A stretch of DNA of 64,000 bases from a virus. The stretch lies in the IMG/VR virus record IMGVR_UViG_3300045988_147522; one strand, given 5' to 3'. Both the position numbers and the translations under genes were made by a program. The notes beneath the pieces were generated by a model. The model was given only the letters and a program-made list of their open reading frames with translations, had not been told where the DNA came from and searched no databases. Shown piece by piece: positions 4,536 through 32,993 of the stretch; the first letter of the stretch is position 1, and every line of letters begins with the position of its first letter.

Positions 4536-4777
4536 AGAAAAGAATATCTGCTTGTGTTGTAATTATTATTATGATTTCGGTATTATTTAGTGGTTGTGCA
4601 TCTATCAAAGCATCAATTAAAACCAGCGATATGTTTGAATACATAGGGTATAGTCCAGAAGCCAACTCTGAAATTGTCTATGATACAGAAACTAAAGTTA
4701 TGTACGCTGTTCTTAGTAACAGATGTATGACTTTGCTCGTTGATGAAAACGGTAAGCCAAAACTTTGGAAAGAATAA
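4532..4777 (+). CDS. putative lipoprotein
   Basis: Signal peptide with lipobox: MKKRISACVVIIIMISVLFSGC. Confidence 0.6.
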   Translation: MKKRISACVVIIIMISVLFSGCASIKASIKTSDMFEYIGYSPEANSEIVYDTETKVMYAVLSNRCMTLLVDENGKPKLWKE

Positions 4778-4810
4778 AATTTAGGATTTAAAAGGAAAGA
4801 GGTGAAATAT

Positions 4811-7666: not shown

Positions 7667-7741
7667 AAGCCAAAAGTAGACACTTCGACTAACTGCCTTC
7701 TAAGCAGTAGGTCAGGGGTTCGAGTCCCTTTTGGCGCGCCA
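7667..7741 (+). other. attP core: tRNA-Arg(UCU)-like segment with an intact 3' two-thirds
   Basis: Anticodon arm ACTGC-CTTCTAA-GCAGT (anticodon TCT). T arm AGGGG-TTCGAGT-CCCTT. 3' acceptor TTGGCGC, then G, then CCA, ending at 7741. The 5' acceptor pairs at only 5 of 7 positions and there is no canonical D arm. Confidence 0.55.
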
Positions 7742-24392: not shown

Positions 24393-27300
24393 TTACAAGT
24401 GCCTATTATTAACAGTATAAGACATAAGTTTTTTGATAGTGTTATTCATAATCTTTTCGGACTCCTTGTGCAGTGCATTAACAGTAGCCTGAGTAGCATC
24501 ACCTTGTACATTGATGTGAATTGTAGGGGAAACAACAGTTGATTTATTGTTCACGACATTCGGTGTTATTTCAGAACCAAACTTCTGTGCAAAATAATCA
24601 GTTGGAGCTGATGCAAATTCAAACAATTCATTTGTCATCGCTTTGCTAAATACAGGATTGCCTTGTGGTAAGATTGTATATCTGCCATTACCAAGAGATG
24701 TAGGAATAAGTTCTGAACCGATACCCTCTTCGTCAACAATAGACAAACCACCTTTGGCTGATTTTGTACCAGAAGCATACGCTTTCATTTTAGACCATAA
24801 AGAACCTGCTGGTAGCGCTCTTCCGCCATACCAATCTTTACTAATCCGACTTATGAAATATGTTTCAGCGTCCTCTTTGTTCGTTTGGTTGGTTTTATAC
24901 ACTTTGCCGTTATAGGTAATTGTATACCCATGACCTGTTATACTCGATGGTTGTATTTTAACTGAATCAATCTTTGCTTTAGTGGTCTGTGCAGAATTAC
25001 CCAACTCGTCAATTTTTTGCTTCAAACTATCAATTCGAGAAGTGTAGTTATCAATGCTTCCTGTCACATTAGCAATAGCAGAGTCTACATCGTAGATACG
25101 AGATTGTAGTGTATTCATTAAATCCATAACATTGAGCTGCGCAGTGCCATATTCATAAAGAGCACTTTGAGCCGACTGCCACATATGGTTAAACTCAGCC
25201 TCTGTGGTTGTAGTGTAATTTTGACAATACCACAACAGGTTGTTATACAATGTACCATTGTCATTGTCAATCATATTACATGCAGCTCTGTGCAAAGATA
25301 CCTCGTTGTTTAAGAAATCTTGAATAGTTTGGATTTCATCATCATAATGCTTATCTGTCTCTTCTTTCAGTTTATCTAAAGCTTCTTTGCGAGTATCATA
25401 CTGATAGTCTGATAGATAATCATATAAGTCTTCTCTGGACTCAACCAAATCATCAACATTTTCTTTGTGAGCCTTTTTACCTGCGGAACTATCGTCCAGT
25501 CCAGTAATAGCAGCAGACAATGCGTTTGAAGCAACAGCATTTTCTTTCTCTTTGAGTTGTTTGTTGAAATCAGCTTCTTCTTTTTCTTTGTCAAGAAGTT
25601 CTTGTTTCTTTTCAATAAGTTCGTCAATTTTATCTTTGCGTTCTTGTAGTGCATCTATTTCGTCCTGCTTAGTCTGTTTAATGTACTTTTCTGTCCAATC
25701 GACTAAACTTTCAATCGCAGACAACGCATCCTCATAACCACTTTTAGTATCTTCTAACGCTTCTTTTTTCTTTTCTAAAGCGTCTTTACTTTTCTCAAGA
25801 GCTTTTTCTTCCTTTTCTATCTGCTTTTTGTACTTCTCCGAAGCAGAAGTAGCTTCGTCTGTAGAAGTAGACAAGTCACTTAATGAAGAAGCATACGAAT
25901 CAATCAAAGCGGCTTTCTTACGCCAAGCAGACTCTGCCTGAATAACCGTTTGTTGATATAGCGTACCTGTGCCTTGTTCAGCGTCTTTAGCAGCAGCAGT
26001 TGCATATGCTTCTTTCCATTTTTTGTCCGCCAAATTAGTAGCCGACTTTGCAGCGCTGTCTTGACTCTTTTGAAGATATGCTAAAGCCTGTGTCTCATTT
26101 TTAAGTTTGCCTACTTCGTCAATTGCTTCTTGTAAGTAAGAAGCTTTCAGTCTTTCTAATTGAGCTTTGGCTAAATCTCTAAATTTTTCAGAAGTTAAAT
26201 CAAGTTCGCCTTGTTCATTAACAAGTAAATTTATATAAGAGTCGTCTAACGACAAAACCGCTTCCAGAGTATCAAAAGATAATTTTCCGTTTTCGTTATA
26301 TTCGTTAATAGCAGTTTTGACAGCCTTAAAAGCCGATAACACAGAAGTAACTTTTTTTGTGGCGTCTTCTGTAGATACTTTAAAAGTAACCTTATCTTCT
26401 GCTTCTTTTTTTATGTCTTTAACAGCTTTTTTTATGTCCTCTAAAGAACTAATATTATCTTTTTTGTTATACAACTTAGAGATCGTATTAAAATCCAGAC
26501 TTTGCAAATACTCTTTGGTTTTGTCTTTTTGTTCTTTGGATACTTTATTTATCAGATCTGTATTTTTTTTGGTGTATTCTTTTACTTTGTCTTGCCATTC
26601 TGATAATGTAAAGTCTGCCGTATCGGTATCGCAAGAAATCTGATAAACTATTTGTTTATCGTCATTTGACAATCCATCTATCCACTCGTTGAATCCTTGA
26701 ATTTCTTTTTGAGCAAGAGATATAGCTCCGTTTGTGCCCAAATAGTGCATAGTTTTTGCAGTATGATCTGCTGTGTCGCCAATATCAGCAATAAGGTTTT
26801 TTATCTTAACGCCATCAATCTCGATGCCTTTAGTGTCTAATTTTAATAAATCTTCGTTAGTCCATCCCTCGCCAGCTTCGTCAATAAGACTCCAAATGTA
26901 TTCGTACACGGTGTCCGCATCCAACAACACTGCTCCGTCAGGCGTTTGTAGCATTGGAGAAAAAGCGATTTCCACACCATCAAAGGTATCCGATCCAGCA
27001 AATACAGTAGAAATTGTGCCTTTCATGTCTTTTACAGTAGAACCCCATGACTCTATCGCAGTTTTGTACTTTTCTAAATTAGAATCTGTCCATTCTAAGA
27101 CTTCACGATTGTTGGTGTCAATATTGCCAAATACTGTTTGTAAAGGATTAACACCCATGTTCGCTGCTTCCTGTTGTATCTCTTCCAAACCAGTGCCATC
27201 AGCAAACTGTTCCTTGATACTACGAACAAAATTATTCGTATCAACTCCGCCCAGTTCAACTGGTATTGCAACAGGTATAATACCATTAATCGTTGATGTA

Positions 27301-28937
27301 TTTTTAGCAGCAGATTTAGTATTATGGGTTTGTTTCGTTGCACGGTTGACAAGATTAGCTATTGCGTCATCTATGTTTACATTATCAGCGACCTCGACAT
27401 CTGAAAACAAAAGTTTTACAAACAATGCTTTTGTATCTGTATCTATACCGTCAACGCTTGATAATACTTTTTTGATCTGATTACTCAAATCTTGATAATT
27501 TGATATATCAATCTTACCATTTTTAATATCGTCTATTTTAGACTGCACACTGCTTAATGTGTCAGCTAATTTTGGATTATCAAACGCTTTAATTATATCA
27601 GATACGGTTTGTTTAACTTTTTCTAAATTATCTGCTGTACTCGCTTCAGGATCAACAATCTTACTGTAGAAGTTATCCCATGTGGCACTATTTATATATT
27701 GTTCAATAAGAACTTGACTTTTACTATCTAATGTGCTAAACTGCTCATTAGTATAGTGAATATACGCATCAAGTACAGGCTTAAAACTATTGTTTACCAA
27801 ATCGTTAATTTGACGCTTTAAAACGGATTGCTGGTTTTTGACTGCCGATATTATGGTAGATAAGTCTTTTTCGTCTATCTCATCATAAAGATAAGACATA
27901 CCATACTCTGTACCGCCACCAGTCTTAACAAGATCTTCAATACCAGCACCTTTTAACGCTTTACTTAAAGCAGGAGTTAATTGAGTATCTTTTTTTTTAT
28001 TAAGATTCTGCACAAATTGGTCGAGTGCTTTAATTTGGGTGATGTAAGTTTCATCATCTGCACCCCACATACCTTGATTAGTCCAGATGTTTTCTAACGC
28101 TTTGCCAATACTATCCTGCTCTTTAGACACGATAGTTTCGTAATAAGCATTCTTTTCATTAGTCATTGCCTTGTTAAGAGCTTCAACATTGTTTTTACAC
28201 TCTAAGATAGCGTCATTCTGGGCTGAGTAACCTTTTACCAAGCCCGGATACATCTGTGCAATCTCATTAGAAAGTTCAATATATCTCTCATACTGAGTAG
28301 AGGTTAAAGAGATATTTTCTCCATAAGAATTAACACCATCAGCTAATTCGTAATATTCATTTTTGATTTTGTTTACAGATGCTGAATGAGATGTGTAGGC
28401 ATCTTTTTTGTCGTTAATCTCTGTTGTGATTTTTTCAAGGTCTGATAGGTTATTTTCAGCTCTGTTGATGTAATTATCAAGTGCTTCAAAACCAAAAGAA
28501 ATTGCAGTCATTACACCTTGTATAATAAGCATATTACCAATACCTGCGGCAATATTCTTTAACGAAGAGCCTAATGAAGATAGCTTGCCTTTAATGCCTG
28601 AAAAAGCACCAGACATTGATTGAGCATTTTTACTTAAGAGATTCTCTGATTCGGCATAATCTGTGTTGTATTGTATGCCTTTTAATAATTCTTGGTTTAA
28701 ATCTTTAGTAGCTTCTGCAAATTTTGACTGCTTGAGTATATCTGCTTCATTAGCAGTTACTGCATTTTTTAAAACCTTGACATCTAAGCTTTCAGCGTAG
28801 GTTTTATATTCTTTATATTTGTCAATAGCCTTGTCAATATCTTGCGTTGCTCTGGCTTTGGCAGCCGTAGTAAACCATCCGATGTGTTTACCATTATCAC
28901 TGTCTAAGTATGTTTGGAGTATCTTTCTCTTAGACAC
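24393..28937 (-). CDS. tape measure protein, C-terminal part (probable exon 2)
   Basis: Coiled-coil-rich with hydrophobic segments. TMP-type C-terminal region ASGTKSAKGGLSIVDEEGIGSELIP. The only start is a GTG with no SD, and an in-frame TAA lies two codons upstream. Confidence 0.75.
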   Translation of the reverse strand: MSKRKILQTYLDSDNGKHIGWFTTAAKARATQDIDKAIDKYKEYKTYAESLDVKVLKNAVTANEADILKQSKFAEATKDLNQELLKGIQYNTDYAESENLLSKNAQSMSGAFSGIKGKLSSLGSSLKNIAAGIGNMLIIQGVMTAISFGFEALDNYINRAENNLSDLEKITTEINDKKDAYTSHSASVNKIKNEYYELADGVNSYGENISLTSTQYERYIELSNEIAQMYPGLVKGYSAQNDAILECKNNVEALNKAMTNEKNAYYETIVSKEQDSIGKALENIWTNQGMWGADDETYITQIKALDQFVQNLNKKKDTQLTPALSKALKGAGIEDLVKTGGGTEYGMSYLYDEIDEKDLSTIISAVKNQQSVLKRQINDLVNNSFKPVLDAYIHYTNEQFSTLDSKSQVLIEQYINSATWDNFYSKIVDPEASTADNLEKVKQTVSDIIKAFDNPKLADTLSSVQSKIDDIKNGKIDISNYQDLSNQIKKVLSSVDGIDTDTKALFVKLLFSDVEVADNVNIDDAIANLVNRATKQTHNTKSAAKNTSTINGIIPVAIPVELGGVDTNNFVRSIKEQFADGTGLEEIQQEAANMGVNPLQTVFGNIDTNNREVLEWTDSNLEKYKTAIESWGSTVKDMKGTISTVFAGSDTFDGVEIAFSPMLQTPDGAVLLDADTVYEYIWSLIDEAGEGWTNEDLLKLDTKGIEIDGVKIKNLIADIGDTADHTAKTMHYLGTNGAISLAQKEIQGFNEWIDGLSNDDKQIVYQISCDTDTADFTLSEWQDKVKEYTKKNTDLINKVSKEQKDKTKEYLQSLDFNTISKLYNKKDNISSLEDIKKAVKDIKKEAEDKVTFKVSTEDATKKVTSVLSAFKAVKTAINEYNENGKLSFDTLEAVLSLDDSYINLLVNEQGELDLTSEKFRDLAKAQLERLKASYLQEAIDEVGKLKNETQALAYLQKSQDSAAKSATNLADKKWKEAYATAAAKDAEQGTGTLYQQTVIQAESAWRKKAALIDSYASSLSDLSTSTDEATSASEKYKKQIEKEEKALEKSKDALEKKKEALEDTKSGYEDALSAIESLVDWTEKYIKQTKQDEIDALQERKDKIDELIEKKQELLDKEKEEADFNKQLKEKENAVASNALSAAITGLDDSSAGKKAHKENVDDLVESREDLYDYLSDYQYDTRKEALDKLKEETDKHYDDEIQTIQDFLNNEVSLHRAACNMIDNDNGTLYNNLLWYCQNYTTTTEAEFNHMWQSAQSALYEYGTAQLNVMDLMNTLQSRIYDVDSAIANVTGSIDNYTSRIDSLKQKIDELGNSAQTTKAKIDSVKIQPSSITGHGYTITYNGKVYKTNQTNKEDAETYFISRISKDWYGGRALPAGSLWSKMKAYASGTKSAKGGLSIVDEEGIGSELIPTSLGNGRYTILPQGNPVFSKAMTNELFEFASAPTDYFAQKFGSEITPNVVNNKSTVVSPTIHINVQGDATQATVNALHKESEKIMNNTIKKLMSYTVNNRHL

Positions 28938-28963
28938 AATATATTAAATAAGAAGGTGTTTTA

Positions 28964-29428
28964 ATGCTTGAAGTAGCAATATGTCCAAAATGTGGAGAAG
29001 TTAATTACCCTGCATTGGAATCATATAAGAAATGTTATTGTTGTTGGGTTGGTTTTCTTAAAAGACCTCGTAAATTGCTTTTTGAAGTTACAGAACAATT
29101 ACAGCGAGAGCACTTTGAACGAGATGTTTTGGGAAGCAAAGAGGCTGAATATCTTTTTTGGTATGAAAAATTCCTTAAAGACTGTCCTGAATATGATAAT
29201 AGTCTATATGAAGAACACTTAAATAACAACAGACGCTGGGATTTAGTAACAAAACAACGACTTAATAAATTATCTTCCAAGCCAACTGTTAAATGTCCAT
29301 ATTGCGGTTCTTTGCGTACTACTAAAATTTCAACAAGTAGTAGAGTAGCTTCATCTCTCACACTCGGCTTAGCAAGCAATAAGATAGGCAAGAACTATCA
29401 ATGTAATGATTGCAAAGCCACCTTCTAA
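28964..29428 (+). CDS. zinc-ribbon protein (opposite strand, between the TMP parts)
   Basis: AAGGTG lies 6 nt before the ATG. Cysteine pairs CPKC...CYCC and CPYC...CNDC. Has its own terminator. Confidence 0.6.
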   Translation: MLEVAICPKCGEVNYPALESYKKCYCCWVGFLKRPRKLLFEVTEQLQREHFERDVLGSKEAEYLFWYEKFLKDCPEYDNSLYEEHLNNNRRWDLVTKQRLNKLSSKPTVKCPYCGSLRTTKISTSSRVASSLTLGLASNKIGKNYQCNDCKATF

Positions 29429-29438
29429 TTAATAATTT

Positions 29439-29470
29439 GAGCAGTGTTTTATAATACTGCTCTTTTTGTT
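29439..29470 (+). terminator. rho-independent terminator (+)
   Basis: GAGCAGT-loop-ACTGCTC followed by TTTTTGTTTGTTT. Confidence 0.55.
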
Positions 29471-29501
29471 TGTTTATAAAACTTTTCTTTTATATGATAG
29501 T

Positions 29502-29808
29502 CACTGTTGTCTCAGTGTCGATTTGGACTATACAATTTAAGGTCATTTCATATCGTTGAAACTACCTCAAGAGGCTTATAGTCTCTGAACCTCCGCTTAT
29601 GCGGCTGGATGCTGATTATGGCTTATTACGGCGGTTAGCTTTTGGCATACGCCGAACAATAACTTGTTTCTGACTTTCGTCTCCATATGGCGTATTGTTC
29701 ATCACCATTTCCCAGAACGGCTATCATTCCGTTTGCAGTTTAACCTCTCATTTAACGACATACATCACCATTTCTTGATTATAGCACGATTACGCTACTT
29801 TCTCAAAA
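29502..29808 (-). ncRNA. group I intron catalytic core
   Basis: Minus-strand matches to the classical P/Q/R/S elements: GTTCTGGGAAATGG (29705-29718), GCATCCAGCC (29603-29612), GGTTCAGAGACTATAAG (29575-29591) and GTATAGTCC (29525-29533). Consistent P3, P4, P6, P7, P8 and P9 pairings are present. Confidence 0.65.
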
Positions 29809-32800
29809 TAGATAGGCATACTCCTAAAACCCGTCAATTTGGGTTTACCCTTGTCGCTTCCCATTAATCCAGACAAAACGCCAGATATAGAAAGAGTACC
29901 AATGTTTGCTCCAAGATGAGAGAGCAATTCATTAGCTTGTGTTAAAAATCCTAACAATCCAGAGCCAGTATCAACTACGCCTTTAACAATATCACTTGAT
30001 ACTGTTGTTGTTGATAATTCCTGCCACTGTGCCTGAAATTGTTTTACTTTACCTTCGATACTATCTATGTACTTTTCGTGTTCCTTTAATGCAGAACCAT
30101 CTGAGTTCTTGGATGTATCTAATGAATTGATTGCTGTACCAATGTTTTGAATTACAGCAGAAGCGTAGTTAGACCTGTTCTTACCGGCGATAAGCTCAAG
30201 TAATGACGCTTTATTTTTATCAGCCAATTCATCCCATACGAGAGCGATATCTTTAAGAATATCATAAGTGCTACGGAATGAACCATTGTCCATAATATCC
30301 ACGCCTGAAGACGAAGAAGTTTTTGTTAAAGCTTTGATTTTGTCTTGAAGCTCAGAAGTTGTTGTGCACATTCCTTCCGTATCTTCTCCAGCCTTTTTAA
30401 GCTCCACCGACATACCTCTTAATCTCATAGCAAGCACTTTAAGTGCATTACCTGATTCATCTGCACTCTGTGTAACTTCGGTCATTGCGGTCAGCAACGC
30501 AATGGTTTCATCAAGGCTATTACCCGCAACAGCCATAGATGCGGCTGAGTTCTTCAAGCCTTCGCCTAAATCACCTGACGAGACAGCGTAATTATTACTC
30601 ACCTCATTAAGTTTATCGACAATGCTTTGTGCCGATGAAGCTTCCATATTAAAAGCTTTTAATATGGAAATAATGTCACTACTTGCTTCACCAACACCAT
30701 CCAAATCGTCACCGACATTAGCATATATGGTTGCTACCTCTGCCAATTGCGTTGAGTCAGGTATATCATAACCCATACGAGCAAAATCAGCGGTACTTGT
30801 AACAAAGTCACTAATAGTAGTACCCAGCTCTTTTGCTTTGCCAGTTGCCGTAGTTAAATATTTGTCATATGTCGAATCGGTGCTGTCTGTAACTTTCTTA
30901 AGCTCCACCATAGCAGTGTCTAACTCGGTTACAATGTGTATCATGTCTTGAACAGTAGCAATAGCTTTATTCATAGACGAAGTGATAAAATTCCACGAAC
31001 CATATTTAAGATAGTTCTTTGCAAGTGTGCGTAGAGCGGTTGCACCCATCAATCCAGCAGACTCGGCAGAAGTCTTAATATTTGCAAACTGTGACTGGAA
31101 AGATTTAAGCTGTTGGCTACTGACTTTTGCAGCATCTGATGTTTTATTTAAAATGGTTTCAATTTGTCCAGCATATTCTTGAGCAGCTTTAGGATTGCTA
31201 CTCGCAAATTTCATAACCTGCAAACGCAGTGTTTCTACTGCTTTGCTGCTTGCGATTGTGCTTTTACTTGCGGTTTCTAAACTCTGACTCCATTTAGTTT
31301 CAAATTTATGTAAAGCAGCATTATTTCCAAGCTTACCAGTTACTTGATTTGTAGCGGTTATTTCTTCGTTAAGTAATTGAAATTTTTGGAGGTAGTCACT
31401 AAGTTCGTTTTTAAAATTGTCAGGAATATTGTGTCCGTTAAGTAAAGATGTTGTTTGCTGACGCAAAGCTCGCATATTAGCCAAATATTTATCCAACTGA
31501 CTATTATTAATAACCTCGCCTGAGCCATTTAAAATATCATAATGATATCCTTGCGCTTTGCCAGTTGCGTTGGCAGTATTGAGCTTTTCTTTAATATTGT
31601 TAATCCTACTTTGAAGCTTGTCTATAAAAGAATCATCTGCACCATTCCATACACCATTTTCAAGTAGTTTTTCACATTCTTGGCGTATATCTTCCAAGTC
31701 CGCTTTTGCTTCTTGTAATTGTCCTTCGGGGATAAACGCTACATTTTTACTGCGGTTTTGAATGTCATCATATACTGTATCAATATCACTCCGAATCTTT
31801 TCTATTTCAGAACGATTGTTGTTTACAGTATTAGAGATAGAGGTCGATAACGCTTGTGCCTCTGTCGCAAAAGACGAAAGAAGTTCTTTTGGTACATCTT
31901 CTCCATTATTCCACATATCACCAATAATATCTTTTTTAGATATGAGGGTTGTAAGTTGAGACCATGCAGTACGATATTCAGACACAGTTAGCAAGCTTTT
32001 GTTTTGCTCTTGCGTTAATTGATTAGTTGTTTGTGATACAAGAGCTTCTGCGTCTTGAAACTCCTTTAAGGCAGCAGTGCTTTCTGTAATAACAGCCAAT
32101 TGACTTTGTAACTCGGAAGCGGATATTTCATTTGTGCGACCAGTAGGAGATACTACACGACTCCCTGTATCAATAAGTTCCTGTAATTCTGCTTTAGTTT
32201 TGTCTATAGACTCAGCACTAATTACACTATTTGAATTATGACTCTCAAGGATAGCATATAAGGATTGGGCAGTTTGAATAATATTATTAATTTCATTAAC
32301 ACTCTGTCTGCCTTCTGTATTGATTGCAGTTACATCTTGCAATAATTTTACAACCTTTTGGCTCAAATTGTCTAAATCAGCGACAGGAATTTCCAACCCT
32401 TGAGATAATGACTGTTCTAACTGTCTTCCTTCAGAAGCCAAACTTCTTGATACCGTAAGAAATTTCTCAATATCTTGTGTATTTAAAAACTGATATCCTT
32501 GTTTTTGAAGGTTTAAACCGCCAATAATGCTTTGGATTCTGCTCTGAATCTGAGATAGCTCTTTTGCAGTTTGCTGATAATTTGTCACATCGGCTGTCGT
32601 CCGATTGCTATTATTATTCTTGCTATATTGACTACGAGATGCTTTGACTGTATTTCCAGTAACACCAACCGAAATACTACCAATTGCTTTTTCAATGTCT
32701 TTCTTCAAAGACTTCATCGCGTTACTACAGTCAAACTTTTTAATTGTAACTACTGGAATTTTTGGAGGGTTTTTAAGAGATTTTTCAAATAGTGTCTGAA

Positions 32801-32993
32801 CGCTCTTTTTTAATTGGTCTTTGGCTTGCTTGCTCTGATCGGCTTCTATATTATATATTTTAATACCGTCAATAGCTTTAGCTAATTCTCCAACACTCTT
32901 TTTGAAAATTTTCTTGTCTTCGTTTCTTGTTCCAGCGATCACTTGGACGGAAATACCAAAAATATCATTTTCATTTGCCACACATACCACCAC
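29790..32993 (-). CDS. tape measure protein, N-terminal part (probable exon 1 plus a few intron-encoded codons)
   Basis: TP901-type TMP core AVSSGDLGEGLKNSAASMAVAGNSLDETIALLTAMTEVTQSADESGNALKVLAMRLRG. The stop at 29790-29792 lies inside the intron-like segment. Confidence 0.8.
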   Translation of the reverse strand: MVVCVANENDIFGISVQVIAGTRNEDKKIFKKSVGELAKAIDGIKIYNIEADQSKQAKDQLKKSVQTLFEKSLKNPPKIPVVTIKKFDCSNAMKSLKKDIEKAIGSISVGVTGNTVKASRSQYSKNNNSNRTTADVTNYQQTAKELSQIQSRIQSIIGGLNLQKQGYQFLNTQDIEKFLTVSRSLASEGRQLEQSLSQGLEIPVADLDNLSQKVVKLLQDVTAINTEGRQSVNEINNIIQTAQSLYAILESHNSNSVISAESIDKTKAELQELIDTGSRVVSPTGRTNEISASELQSQLAVITESTAALKEFQDAEALVSQTTNQLTQEQNKSLLTVSEYRTAWSQLTTLISKKDIIGDMWNNGEDVPKELLSSFATEAQALSTSISNTVNNNRSEIEKIRSDIDTVYDDIQNRSKNVAFIPEGQLQEAKADLEDIRQECEKLLENGVWNGADDSFIDKLQSRINNIKEKLNTANATGKAQGYHYDILNGSGEVINNSQLDKYLANMRALRQQTTSLLNGHNIPDNFKNELSDYLQKFQLLNEEITATNQVTGKLGNNAALHKFETKWSQSLETASKSTIASSKAVETLRLQVMKFASSNPKAAQEYAGQIETILNKTSDAAKVSSQQLKSFQSQFANIKTSAESAGLMGATALRTLAKNYLKYGSWNFITSSMNKAIATVQDMIHIVTELDTAMVELKKVTDSTDSTYDKYLTTATGKAKELGTTISDFVTSTADFARMGYDIPDSTQLAEVATIYANVGDDLDGVGEASSDIISILKAFNMEASSAQSIVDKLNEVSNNYAVSSGDLGEGLKNSAASMAVAGNSLDETIALLTAMTEVTQSADESGNALKVLAMRLRGMSVELKKAGEDTEGMCTTTSELQDKIKALTKTSSSSGVDIMDNGSFRSTYDILKDIALVWDELADKNKASLLELIAGKNRSNYASAVIQNIGTAINSLDTSKNSDGSALKEHEKYIDSIEGKVKQFQAQWQELSTTTVSSDIVKGVVDTGSGLLGFLTQANELLSHLGANIGTLSISGVLSGLMGSDKGKPKLTGFRSMPIYFEKVA

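Follow-up and report, generated by a model that had tools for sequence, protein, structure and literature searches.

What separates the two large genes of the tape measure region in IMG/VR virus record IMGVR_UViG_3300045988_147522? In this 64,000-nucleotide (nt) stretch of viral DNA, hereafter the window, two open reading frames (ORFs) follow one another on the minus strand, ORF1 encoding 1,067 amino acids (aa) and ORF2 encoding 1,514 aa, with a gap of 853 nt between them in which a further ORF (28964-29428) sits on the plus strand. An earlier reading by a model that saw only the letters and a list of ORFs (the sequence-only reading) had proposed a single gene, split by a group I intron that carries an antisense zinc-ribbon gene. 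Our analysis makes it very probable that what lies between them is a group I intron of 873 nt (minus strand, 29807-28935) splitting the tape measure gene, with an antisense cargo gene inside it (Table 1).

That the two ORFs belong together is indicated by homologues in which they are one. Seven uninterrupted ORFs, of 1,961 to >2,516 codons, are collinear with the two, matching first ORF1 (E 1e-58 to 1e-105) and then ORF2 (E 1e-8 to 6e-24), and the junction is covered by four database proteins (P0012, P0016, P0042 and P0044). At 40-49% identity, about 30 relatives keep a frame open for 1,400-1,900 codons through the junction and about 35 stop there, most of these with a group I core just downstream. 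The end of exon 1, ...SMPIY, is conserved (NMPIY in L008, KMPTY in L145); ORF1 as annotated continues to a stop at 29790, its last five codons, FEKVA, and the stop falling in the predicted intron. On the other side, in the relatives L001/L021/L029 and L202 (about 90% identical) the conserved downstream frame opens without an ATG, GTG or TTG. A stop precedes that frame immediately in L001 and by two codons in L202, and the first canonical in-frame start comes about 100 codons downstream in L001 and about 35 codons downstream (a GTG) in L202. ORF1 carries the tape-measure core PF10145, and in relatives the neighbouring genes are of the tail-tube and chaperone types; Pfam matches to YomU, YomW and YomN there indicate an SPbeta-like tail module. 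By homology, ORF1 and ORF2 are the halves of one predicted tape measure protein of about 2,575 aa, as the sequence-only reading had it, and we consider it highly probable that a group I intron is what splits the gene. It had also described correctly the flanking ORFs, the GTG of ORF2 with its missing Shine-Dalgarno (SD) sequence and nearby TAA, the plus-strand ORF and the terminator.

The ribozyme core is detected by a custom covariance model, R1, which covers the 3' core (Q-P6-P7-P3'-P8-P7', 90 positions) and was derived from nine further lineages with an interruption at this gene site, excluding the window's own subtype. This subtype comprises L008, L053 and the window type (about 22 near-identical IMG/VR copies and 2 metagenome copies), three lineages that have diverged from one another. 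With both strands of the 64-kb window searched, R1 gives a single match, at 29617-29522 on the minus strand, full length, with 36.8 bits and E = 1.4e-05. It also detects the core in loci outside its training set (L202, L008, L053, L169 and L203). The R and S elements noted from the letters alone are present: the 17-nt R element occurs exactly in 30 viral contigs and is followed 25-59 nt downstream by TAGTC in 30/30. A block of the P5 extension, GGAGACGAAAGTCAGAAA, is common to 84 viral stretches, including introns positive for RF00028, the Rfam group I intron model; in L110 (84.6 bits) and L075 (53.3 bits) the block lies inside the RF00028 match. The newly found stretches with this block, when read through, are mostly classical phage group I introns (P AATTGCTGGGAA, Q AATCAGCAGC, R TTCAACGACTA, S GATATAGTC). 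Judged by the R1 match, the shared P5 block and the covariation described below, the minus-strand RNA at about 29807-29500 is a group I ribozyme core, and the central claim of the sequence-only reading holds.

RNAalifold, applied to the three lineages, folds the RNA into P4 and P5, a P5 extension in three parts with a GAAA tetraloop, a P6 in two parts, P7 around P8, and P9; of the 83 pairs, 19 have changes on both sides. With P3 placed as a pseudoknot, the helices follow the canonical order P3-P4-P5-P5'-P4'-P6-P7-P3'-P8-P7'-P9. In the pair count that includes P3, 96% of cells pair, against 33-48% with slid partners, and 19/82 pairs are compensatory, against 1-3 in slid controls; 0/500 shuffles reach the observed values, with the caveat that the structure was derived from the same sequences on which it was tested, and from three lineages. 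P6, P8 and P9, proposed earlier, each show compensatory changes within the subtype, and P8 keeps its pairing in L008 and L053 with an almost wholly different sequence. P7, likewise recovered in the fold, covaries over ten lineages of the wider family (at one pair CG five times, GC four times and GU once), and the GAC-GAAA-GUC hairpin is in the fold and invariant. The earlier placement of P4 and Q needs correction, although the core elements themselves stood: P4 is not CTGGG/TCCAG and instead pairs CUGG with UCAG, Q is AAUCAGCA at 29617-29610, and TCCAG is made up of outer P6 and a bulge. Because of this reassignment, two otherwise odd outer-P6 substitutions in L053 become a compensatory pair. 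The hairpin between P3 and P4 varies from ACGG/CCGU to GUGGG/CCCAC in L008 and ACGGG/CCCGU in L053. P7.1 and P7.2, typical of IA2 phage introns, are absent, since 2 nt separate P7 (29583-29577) from P3' (29574-29570).

Table 1. Features of the predicted intron and its flanks in the window, and the splice junctions compared
Feature	Position	Strand	Remarks
ORF1	29790-32993	-	1,067 aa; PF10145 (PhageMin_Tail) tape-measure core, E = 1e-25
ORF2	24393-28937	-	1,514 aa; GTG start, no SD, TAA two codons upstream
Exon 1, tape measure gene (predicted)	29808..32993	-	PF10145; matches N-terminal part of uninterrupted homologues
Exon 2, tape measure gene (predicted)	24393..28934	-	starts TCT AAG AGA (SKR...); matches C-terminal parts of uninterrupted homologues
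Group I intron (predicted)	28935..29807	-	873 nt; 5' site after U29808, last base G28935, from comparison
Ribozyme core, P1 to P9	29500..29807	-	RNAalifold and pair counts, three lineages; fold z-score -3.4
P1 5' strand	29805..29811	-	exon CUAU plus intron UUU; two alternative partners
Inner hairpin GUAGCG-UAAUCG-UGCUAU	29781..29798	-	three pairs with changes on both sides
GAAAUGG, partner of 5' exon end	29768..29774	-	6/15 helix pairs compensatory
P3	AGAGG 29744..29748 with CCUCU 29574-29570	-	complementary, invariant in all copies; covariation silent
Extra hairpin AACGG...CCGUU between P3 and P4	29716..29733	-	covaries
P4	CUGG 29715-29712 with UCAG 29615-29612	-	homologous to UGCUGG/UCAGCA of classical relatives
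P5 and extension	29618..29708	-	P5 is AUGGU/GCCAU; compensatory changes in P5, P5a and P5c
P5a	29700-29693/29661-29654	-	compensatory changes
P5b GAC-GAAA-GUC tetraloop hairpin	29681-29672	-	invariant in subtype
P5c	29653-29650/29633-29630	-	compensatory changes
Q element AAUCAGCA	29610..29617	-	holds P4 3' strand; R1 model positions 1-8; same as Q of classical relatives
Bipartite P6	29590..29608	-	outer CC/GG; inner CCGC-AUAA-GCGG, 29604-29601/29596-29593; compensatory changes in both parts
R element GGUUCAGAGACUAUAAG (RNA), GGTTCAGAGACTATAAG (DNA)	29575..29591	-	contains P7 5' strand 29583-29577
P7	29583-29577/29532-29526	-	invariant in subtype, covaries family-wide
P8 hairpin	29538..29569	-	strands 29569-29557/29550-29538; compensatory changes
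S element UAUAGUCC (RNA), TATAGTCC (DNA)	29525..29532	-	P7 3' strand
P9 hairpin	29503..29516	-	strands 29516-29513/29506-29503; 80% paired, one compensatory pair
Zinc-ribbon gene	28964..29428	+	154 aa, a zinc ribbon at each terminus; lies in the 3' extension of the intron
Intrinsic terminator of zinc-ribbon gene	29439..29472	+	10-bp stem and T-run; one-directional
3' junction, window			attgtG/TCTAAGAGA
3' junction, L001/L021/L029			atcataG/TCTAAGGTT
3' junction, L202			acatagG/TCTAAAGAT
3' junction, L008			ctattaG/ATGTTCCAA
Predicted spliced junction			...ATGCCTATCTAT/TCTAAGAGAAAG (...SMPIY to SKRKILQ...)
Junction under wobble-site alternative (-2/-2)			...CTATCT/TGTCTAAG

Candidate splice sites were enumerated as all combinations with a U before the 5' site, a G before the 3' site and an open joined frame. 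Just one pair, with its sites after 29808 and after 28935, fits at identical positions in the window, L001, L202 and L008, and we regard these as the likely splice sites. They are the sites first proposed, although 28935 is not the only G-terminated in-frame 3' site, as had been stated: positions +6 and +12 also qualify, and it is the relatives that select 28935. Exon 1 ends in ...TAT in all, and the 3' junction reads G/TCT in the window, L001 and L202 and G/ATG in L008. Upstream of the G the four diverged 3' flanks vary, even by a 1-nt indel, and immediately past it the protein becomes conserved. With G28935 as the omega-G the joined frame is open and agrees with the single-protein homologues. 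Two other placements were rejected. With a 5' site at the conserved wobble U29810 (phase 1), no single 3' site fits the window, L001, L202 and L008, and a 3' site just after P9 (...MPIY-TII and stop) would fall in sequence that L008 and L053 do not conserve.

For the 5' exon end, the alignment offers two mutually exclusive partners. The pairing with GAAAUGG, around the inner hairpin, is also picked by the single-sequence minimum free energy fold (z = -3.4). The inner hairpin competes for GUAG with the second version of P1, formed with AAAGUAG (29801-29795). This is the P1 originally drawn (CUAUUUU/AAAGUAG), and it fared no better than its controls, being 72% paired, equal to slid controls in this alignment register. 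A register shift in L008 could hide it, and we keep both pairings as candidates. The first 30 nt of the intron also contain a near-consensus extended -10 promoter on the sense strand (29806-29778, minus strand; TTGAGA, 17 nt, TG-n-TATAAT; 11/12 matches). It is not conserved in L008 or L053 and may be a chance likeness; if active, it would yield transcripts starting without exon 1.

The plus-strand ORF is, by its homologues, a real conserved gene lying antisense within the predicted intron, as had been suggested. Its 154-aa product has full-length homologues at 64-68% identity, which make up a single cluster with 105 members, found on contigs as long as 1.19 Mb, and are named only 'hypothetical protein [uncultured Ruminococcus sp.]'; it matches PF23451 (E = 5e-07). 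An SD sequence, AAGAAGGTG, stands 7 nt ahead of the ATG. The gene's terminator, at 29439-29462 in its narrower delimitation, should not stop tape-measure transcription, because A/T-mixed sequence follows the stem on the sense strand. The widely conserved part of the protein is only the C-terminal zinc ribbon of about 50 residues, found at E <= 1e-3 in 2,539 cluster representatives, all of them small proteins that carry it C-terminally. Searches of Pfam, NCBIfam, PHROGs and PADLOC identify zinc ribbons only, and a Foldseek comparison of an AlphaFold model (predicted local distance difference test, pLDDT, 76) with the PDB and viral models returns only generic zinc-ribbon and Rpb9/TFIIS-like folds. 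The protein has no LAGLIDADG, GIY-YIG, HNH, His-Cys, PD-(D/E)xK or EDxHD domain, and neither a homing endonuclease nor a defence role finds support in Pfam, NCBIfam, PHROGs, PADLOC or Foldseek. Nor does the intron encode TnpA or TnpB, its sole ORF being that of the 154-aa protein, where transposase zinc-binding matches stay far below their cut-offs. A simple sigma-70 scan gave no promoter for the antisense gene. The first 30 or so nt of exon 2 (28934-28905; AAGATACTCCAAAC.TA.TTAGAC), when the window is compared with L001 and L202, are far better conserved as DNA than the coding sequence after them; lying just upstream of the antisense gene on the plus strand, they could be a promoter site. We predict that transcription of this gene begins within the initial 60 or so nt of exon 2 and that its RNA occurs in the lysogen.

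The arrangement recurs among relatives. In 15 of 18 interrupted lineages an opposite-strand gene adjoins the downstream exon and has this zinc-ribbon motif at its end, and it occupies the 3' edge irrespective of the ribozyme type at the other end of the gap. Distant members of the protein family, chosen blind to context, are divergent next to a giant opposite-strand ORF in 6/6 cases, with a PF10145 ORF beyond the gap wherever the contig extends far enough. The interruption stands at the same site in lineages with only about 35% protein identity and different ribozyme types. This persistence, together with the near-constant presence of the gene at the 3' edge, suggests a function that goes with the site and not with the ribozyme. 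We entertain tentatively, as a possibility short of an even chance, that intron and zinc-ribbon gene form one conserved, co-inherited module in the tape measure genes of a large group of gut Firmicutes phages, with the protein tied to the site. Such a protein would be either a non-canonical intron maintenance or mobility factor, or a protein expressed from the prophage, acting for example in superinfection exclusion against incoming tape measure proteins; in the latter case the gene would stay linked to its own tape measure allele by residing inside it. On this view, with the bay also taking up defence-type cargo (HEPN, GmrSD-N) and growing to 3-7.5 kb, self-splicing introns would be carriers of accessory genes inside essential phage genes.

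The gaps span 0.8-7.5 kb, and in other lineages they carry defence-type or accessory genes as well. Matches are to HEPN pEK499_p136 (E = 1e-17), the N-terminal domain of GmrSD (E = 8e-12), DUF2513, antirepressors of the ANT/Bro-N type and PBECR2/3, and cargo loci include L118 10525-11121 (-), L193 6752-7753 (+), L204 7510-8355 (-) and L207 6812-7219 (-). L008 and L053 share a sense-strand ORF of 216-230 aa with a hydrophobic N-terminal half and no family match. In L203 a single 4.4-kb gap between tape-measure halves holds two cores, at 8947-8802 and 7073-6927 on the minus strand (E = 9e-05 and 2.4e-05), which suggests tandem introns rather than one giant intron and weakens the idea that every large gap is a single giant intron.

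We propose that late transcription would read through the entire element. The first 310 or so nt, P1 to P9 with an elaborate P5 extension and its GAAA tetraloop, would act as the ribozyme and excise the intron by two guanosine-initiated transesterifications, joining ...SMPIY to SKRKILQ... to give the one protein of full length; unspliced RNA would yield only the N-terminal product of ORF1, ending FEKVA. The remaining 565 nt or so, from P9 to the 3' splice site, would serve as a cargo bay with one opposite-strand gene. Independent expression of the zinc-ribbon protein, perhaps from the prophage, is most likely because its gene runs against the late operon and has its own signals, and the intron would offer it a cost-free site in an essential gene. 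The splicing, the exact sites, the timing of expression and any role of the antisense protein are predictions.

Several findings weigh against this account. The check named beforehand as decisive against an intron, a search with RF00028, gave no match to the window by cmscan, neither over its whole length at the gathering score nor for 28700-30000 at E <= 10; no Rfam family reaches threshold in the intron region, and the weak matches there are to unrelated families. We take the miss as a limit of sensitivity, because in control loci the model scores classical introns at 53-99 bits and misses every copy of the window subtype as well as the same-site cores in three distant relatives. P3, P4 and P7 are invariant within the subtype, and because of this the catalytic centre is supported by homology and by covariation at the family level. 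The hairpin at 29733-29716 stands between P3 and P4, where a 3-nt junction is the norm for group I introns; it is thus non-standard, and with P3 invariant the local topology is tentative. At the 5' end, the conserved U.G wobble of the GAAAUGG helix falls at 29810 and not at the frame-consistent site 29808, where a U.G exists only in the AAAGUAG version of P1, for which comparative support is missing; in L053 exon position -1 is a C instead of a U. At the 3' end, P10 pairing with the 3' exon appears weak on inspection, the splice site is 565 nt from P9, and no long-range helix was found that would return it to the core. A search with the exon 1 locus for a close intron-less allele gave intron-containing relatives only, and pattern scans for one gave 0 matches in genome contigs and, in metagenomes, only 2 more window-type copies. 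The uninterrupted homologues cannot pin the junction, because it falls in an unalignable linker.

These points leave room for other explanations. If two separate polypeptides carried the tape measure function, ORF1 would end at its own stop and ORF2 would be translated from the GTG at 28937, the ribozyme being a relic or falling short of its distant 3' site. Dozens of homologues at about 35% identity do stop at this point, give or take 10-20 residues, ATG starts are common among the downstream ORFs of other lineages, the gaps reach 3-7.5 kb and many genes, long for a group I intron, and an in-frame GTG exists in the window. That GTG, however, lacks an SD, and L001/L021/L029 and L202 have no start codon before the conserved SK.KILQTYLD coding sequence; the uninterrupted homologues are single proteins, and 19 compensatory pairs speak of purifying selection on the structure, which is not expected of a relic. 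We therefore consider both the two-polypeptide organisation and its translation from that GTG unlikely. Of a different kind is the idea that splicing is partial and works as a switch, with the short product (...MPIYFEKVA) and the full-length protein both in use, by analogy with the two frameshift products of tail-assembly chaperone genes, and with the competition between the GAAAUGG and AAAGUAG pairings setting the ratio. The two well-formed, mutually exclusive pairings at the 5' exon end and GUAG would suit it, as would the short in-frame tail and early stop after the junction in each lineage, and persistence at one site, across 35% identity and different ribozymes, is unusual for a purely selfish intron. 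Yet some 30 relatives have uninterrupted genes, so the split is dispensable, a short tail and stop are expected of any intron by chance, and two products lack direct evidence; such a switch seems to us quite improbable.

That the likeness to a group I intron arose by chance, or that the RNA is of another structured kind, such as a leader or regulatory RNA of the downstream gene, is a thought prompted by Rfam, in which all families stay below threshold and the weak matches are unrelated. Against it stand the independent covariance-model match, the exact R...S arrangement in 30/30 loci, the canonical helix order recovered unsupervised, and the modules shared with RF00028-positive introns; the R1 match and the compensatory pairs together effectively refute it, and we give it hardly any credence. 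The intron interpretation stays the best supported. The sequence-only reading, confirmed in part as an observation, was essentially right in its interpretation, its errors limited to details of P4/Q and P1, although it had missed how widespread the arrangement is.

A second optional intron appears to occupy the same gene in seven close relatives, at a site corresponding to about 30593 (minus strand) of the window: GAGGTGAGT/AATAATTACGC. The insertion starts after a U and ends in a G, and its flanks, when joined, equal the uninterrupted sequence of the window, which is the intron-less allele. It is about 430 nt long (L005 10851-11280) and has R/S-like elements (TCCGTAGAGACTG ... CCAGTCC); neither RF00028 nor R1 detects it. 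In L028 (2041-3517) it measures 1,476 nt and adds a sense-strand ORF with a GDYWHANP motif. The L053 copy of the first element (4760-4800; ENA ERZ27227520 k141_519837) has an upstream frameshift relative to the conserved ...VNWNMPIY frame, and beyond its core lie at least three sense-strand ORFs; this copy may be a decaying allele or an assembly error. The host phage is a prophage or phage of gut Clostridia, and no deposited phage matches the window by blastn at a distant setting. The sole Rfam match in the window at gathering score is a tRNA-like gene at 7669-7736 on the plus strand, with 32.5 bits against a cut-off of 29 bits and an acceptor stem that is imperfect in the alignment.

For annotation, these results mean that the phage would have a tape measure protein of about 2,575 aa, not two proteins. 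The same misannotation is probably repeated in hundreds of gut prophage records, because standard pipelines, Rfam included, miss this intron subtype.

Phage group I introns are usually viewed as sporadic selfish elements with a sense-strand endonuclease. In the classical cases (T4 td, nrdB and nrdD/sunY, the SPO1 DNA polymerase gene, Twort orf142) an ORF is looped out peripherally from a core with P, Q, R and S elements, and it lies on the sense strand and encodes a GIY-YIG or HNH endonuclease. The window element resembles these in interrupting a phage protein gene and in its P/Q/R/S core; unlike theirs, its ORF is antisense. The nearest precedent for the host gene is in prophages of the Bacillus cereus group, whose tape measure genes have group I introns at three sites, TMP-IVS1, IVS2 and IVS3 (Tourasse and Kolsto 2008, PMC2504315). 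There too the tape measure gene of temperate Firmicutes phages is interrupted, different introns occur at the same site, intron-plus and intron-minus alleles coexist, and the ribozymes are of phage type, akin to other phage introns (PMC2504315). Those introns belong to IA1/IA2 and carry sense-strand homing endonuclease genes or none, with no opposite-strand gene mentioned (PMC2504315), whereas the window core lacks P7.1/P7.2, has the extra P3/P4 hairpin, is RF00028-negative and comes from a phage of gut Clostridia.

In its layout the element recalls the IStrons (CdISt1 and relatives), in which a group I ribozyme is fused to an IS200/IS605 insertion sequence (IS) element (PMC4227781, PMC3984707): both have a compact 5' ribozyme and foreign coding cargo before a distant 3' site, and in both splicing would make insertion harmless. 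The cargo here is a 154-aa opposite-strand zinc-ribbon protein, not a transposase or TnpB; no IS ends are seen, and unlike the scattered IStrons the window-type element keeps to one conserved site in one gene family. Protein genes opposite in strand to both intron and host gene are known from group I introns of nuclear ribosomal DNA (rDNA), for example L2066, which have antisense homing endonuclease genes (PMC9548176). Those are eukaryotic, encode His-Cys box endonucleases and need Pol II signals and spliceosomal introns (PMC9548176), while the window protein has no nuclease signature and belongs to a bacterial system. A literature search for antisense intron genes returned nuclear rDNA introns only (PMC9548176), and opposite-strand genes go unmentioned in a review of bacterial group I introns and in the IStron survey. 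Introns in phage tape measure genes are already known; the conserved opposite-strand zinc-ribbon gene at the 3' edge appears to be new, and the relatives suggest that such introns can serve as cost-free landing pads, within essential late genes, for independently expressed and partly defence-related genes.

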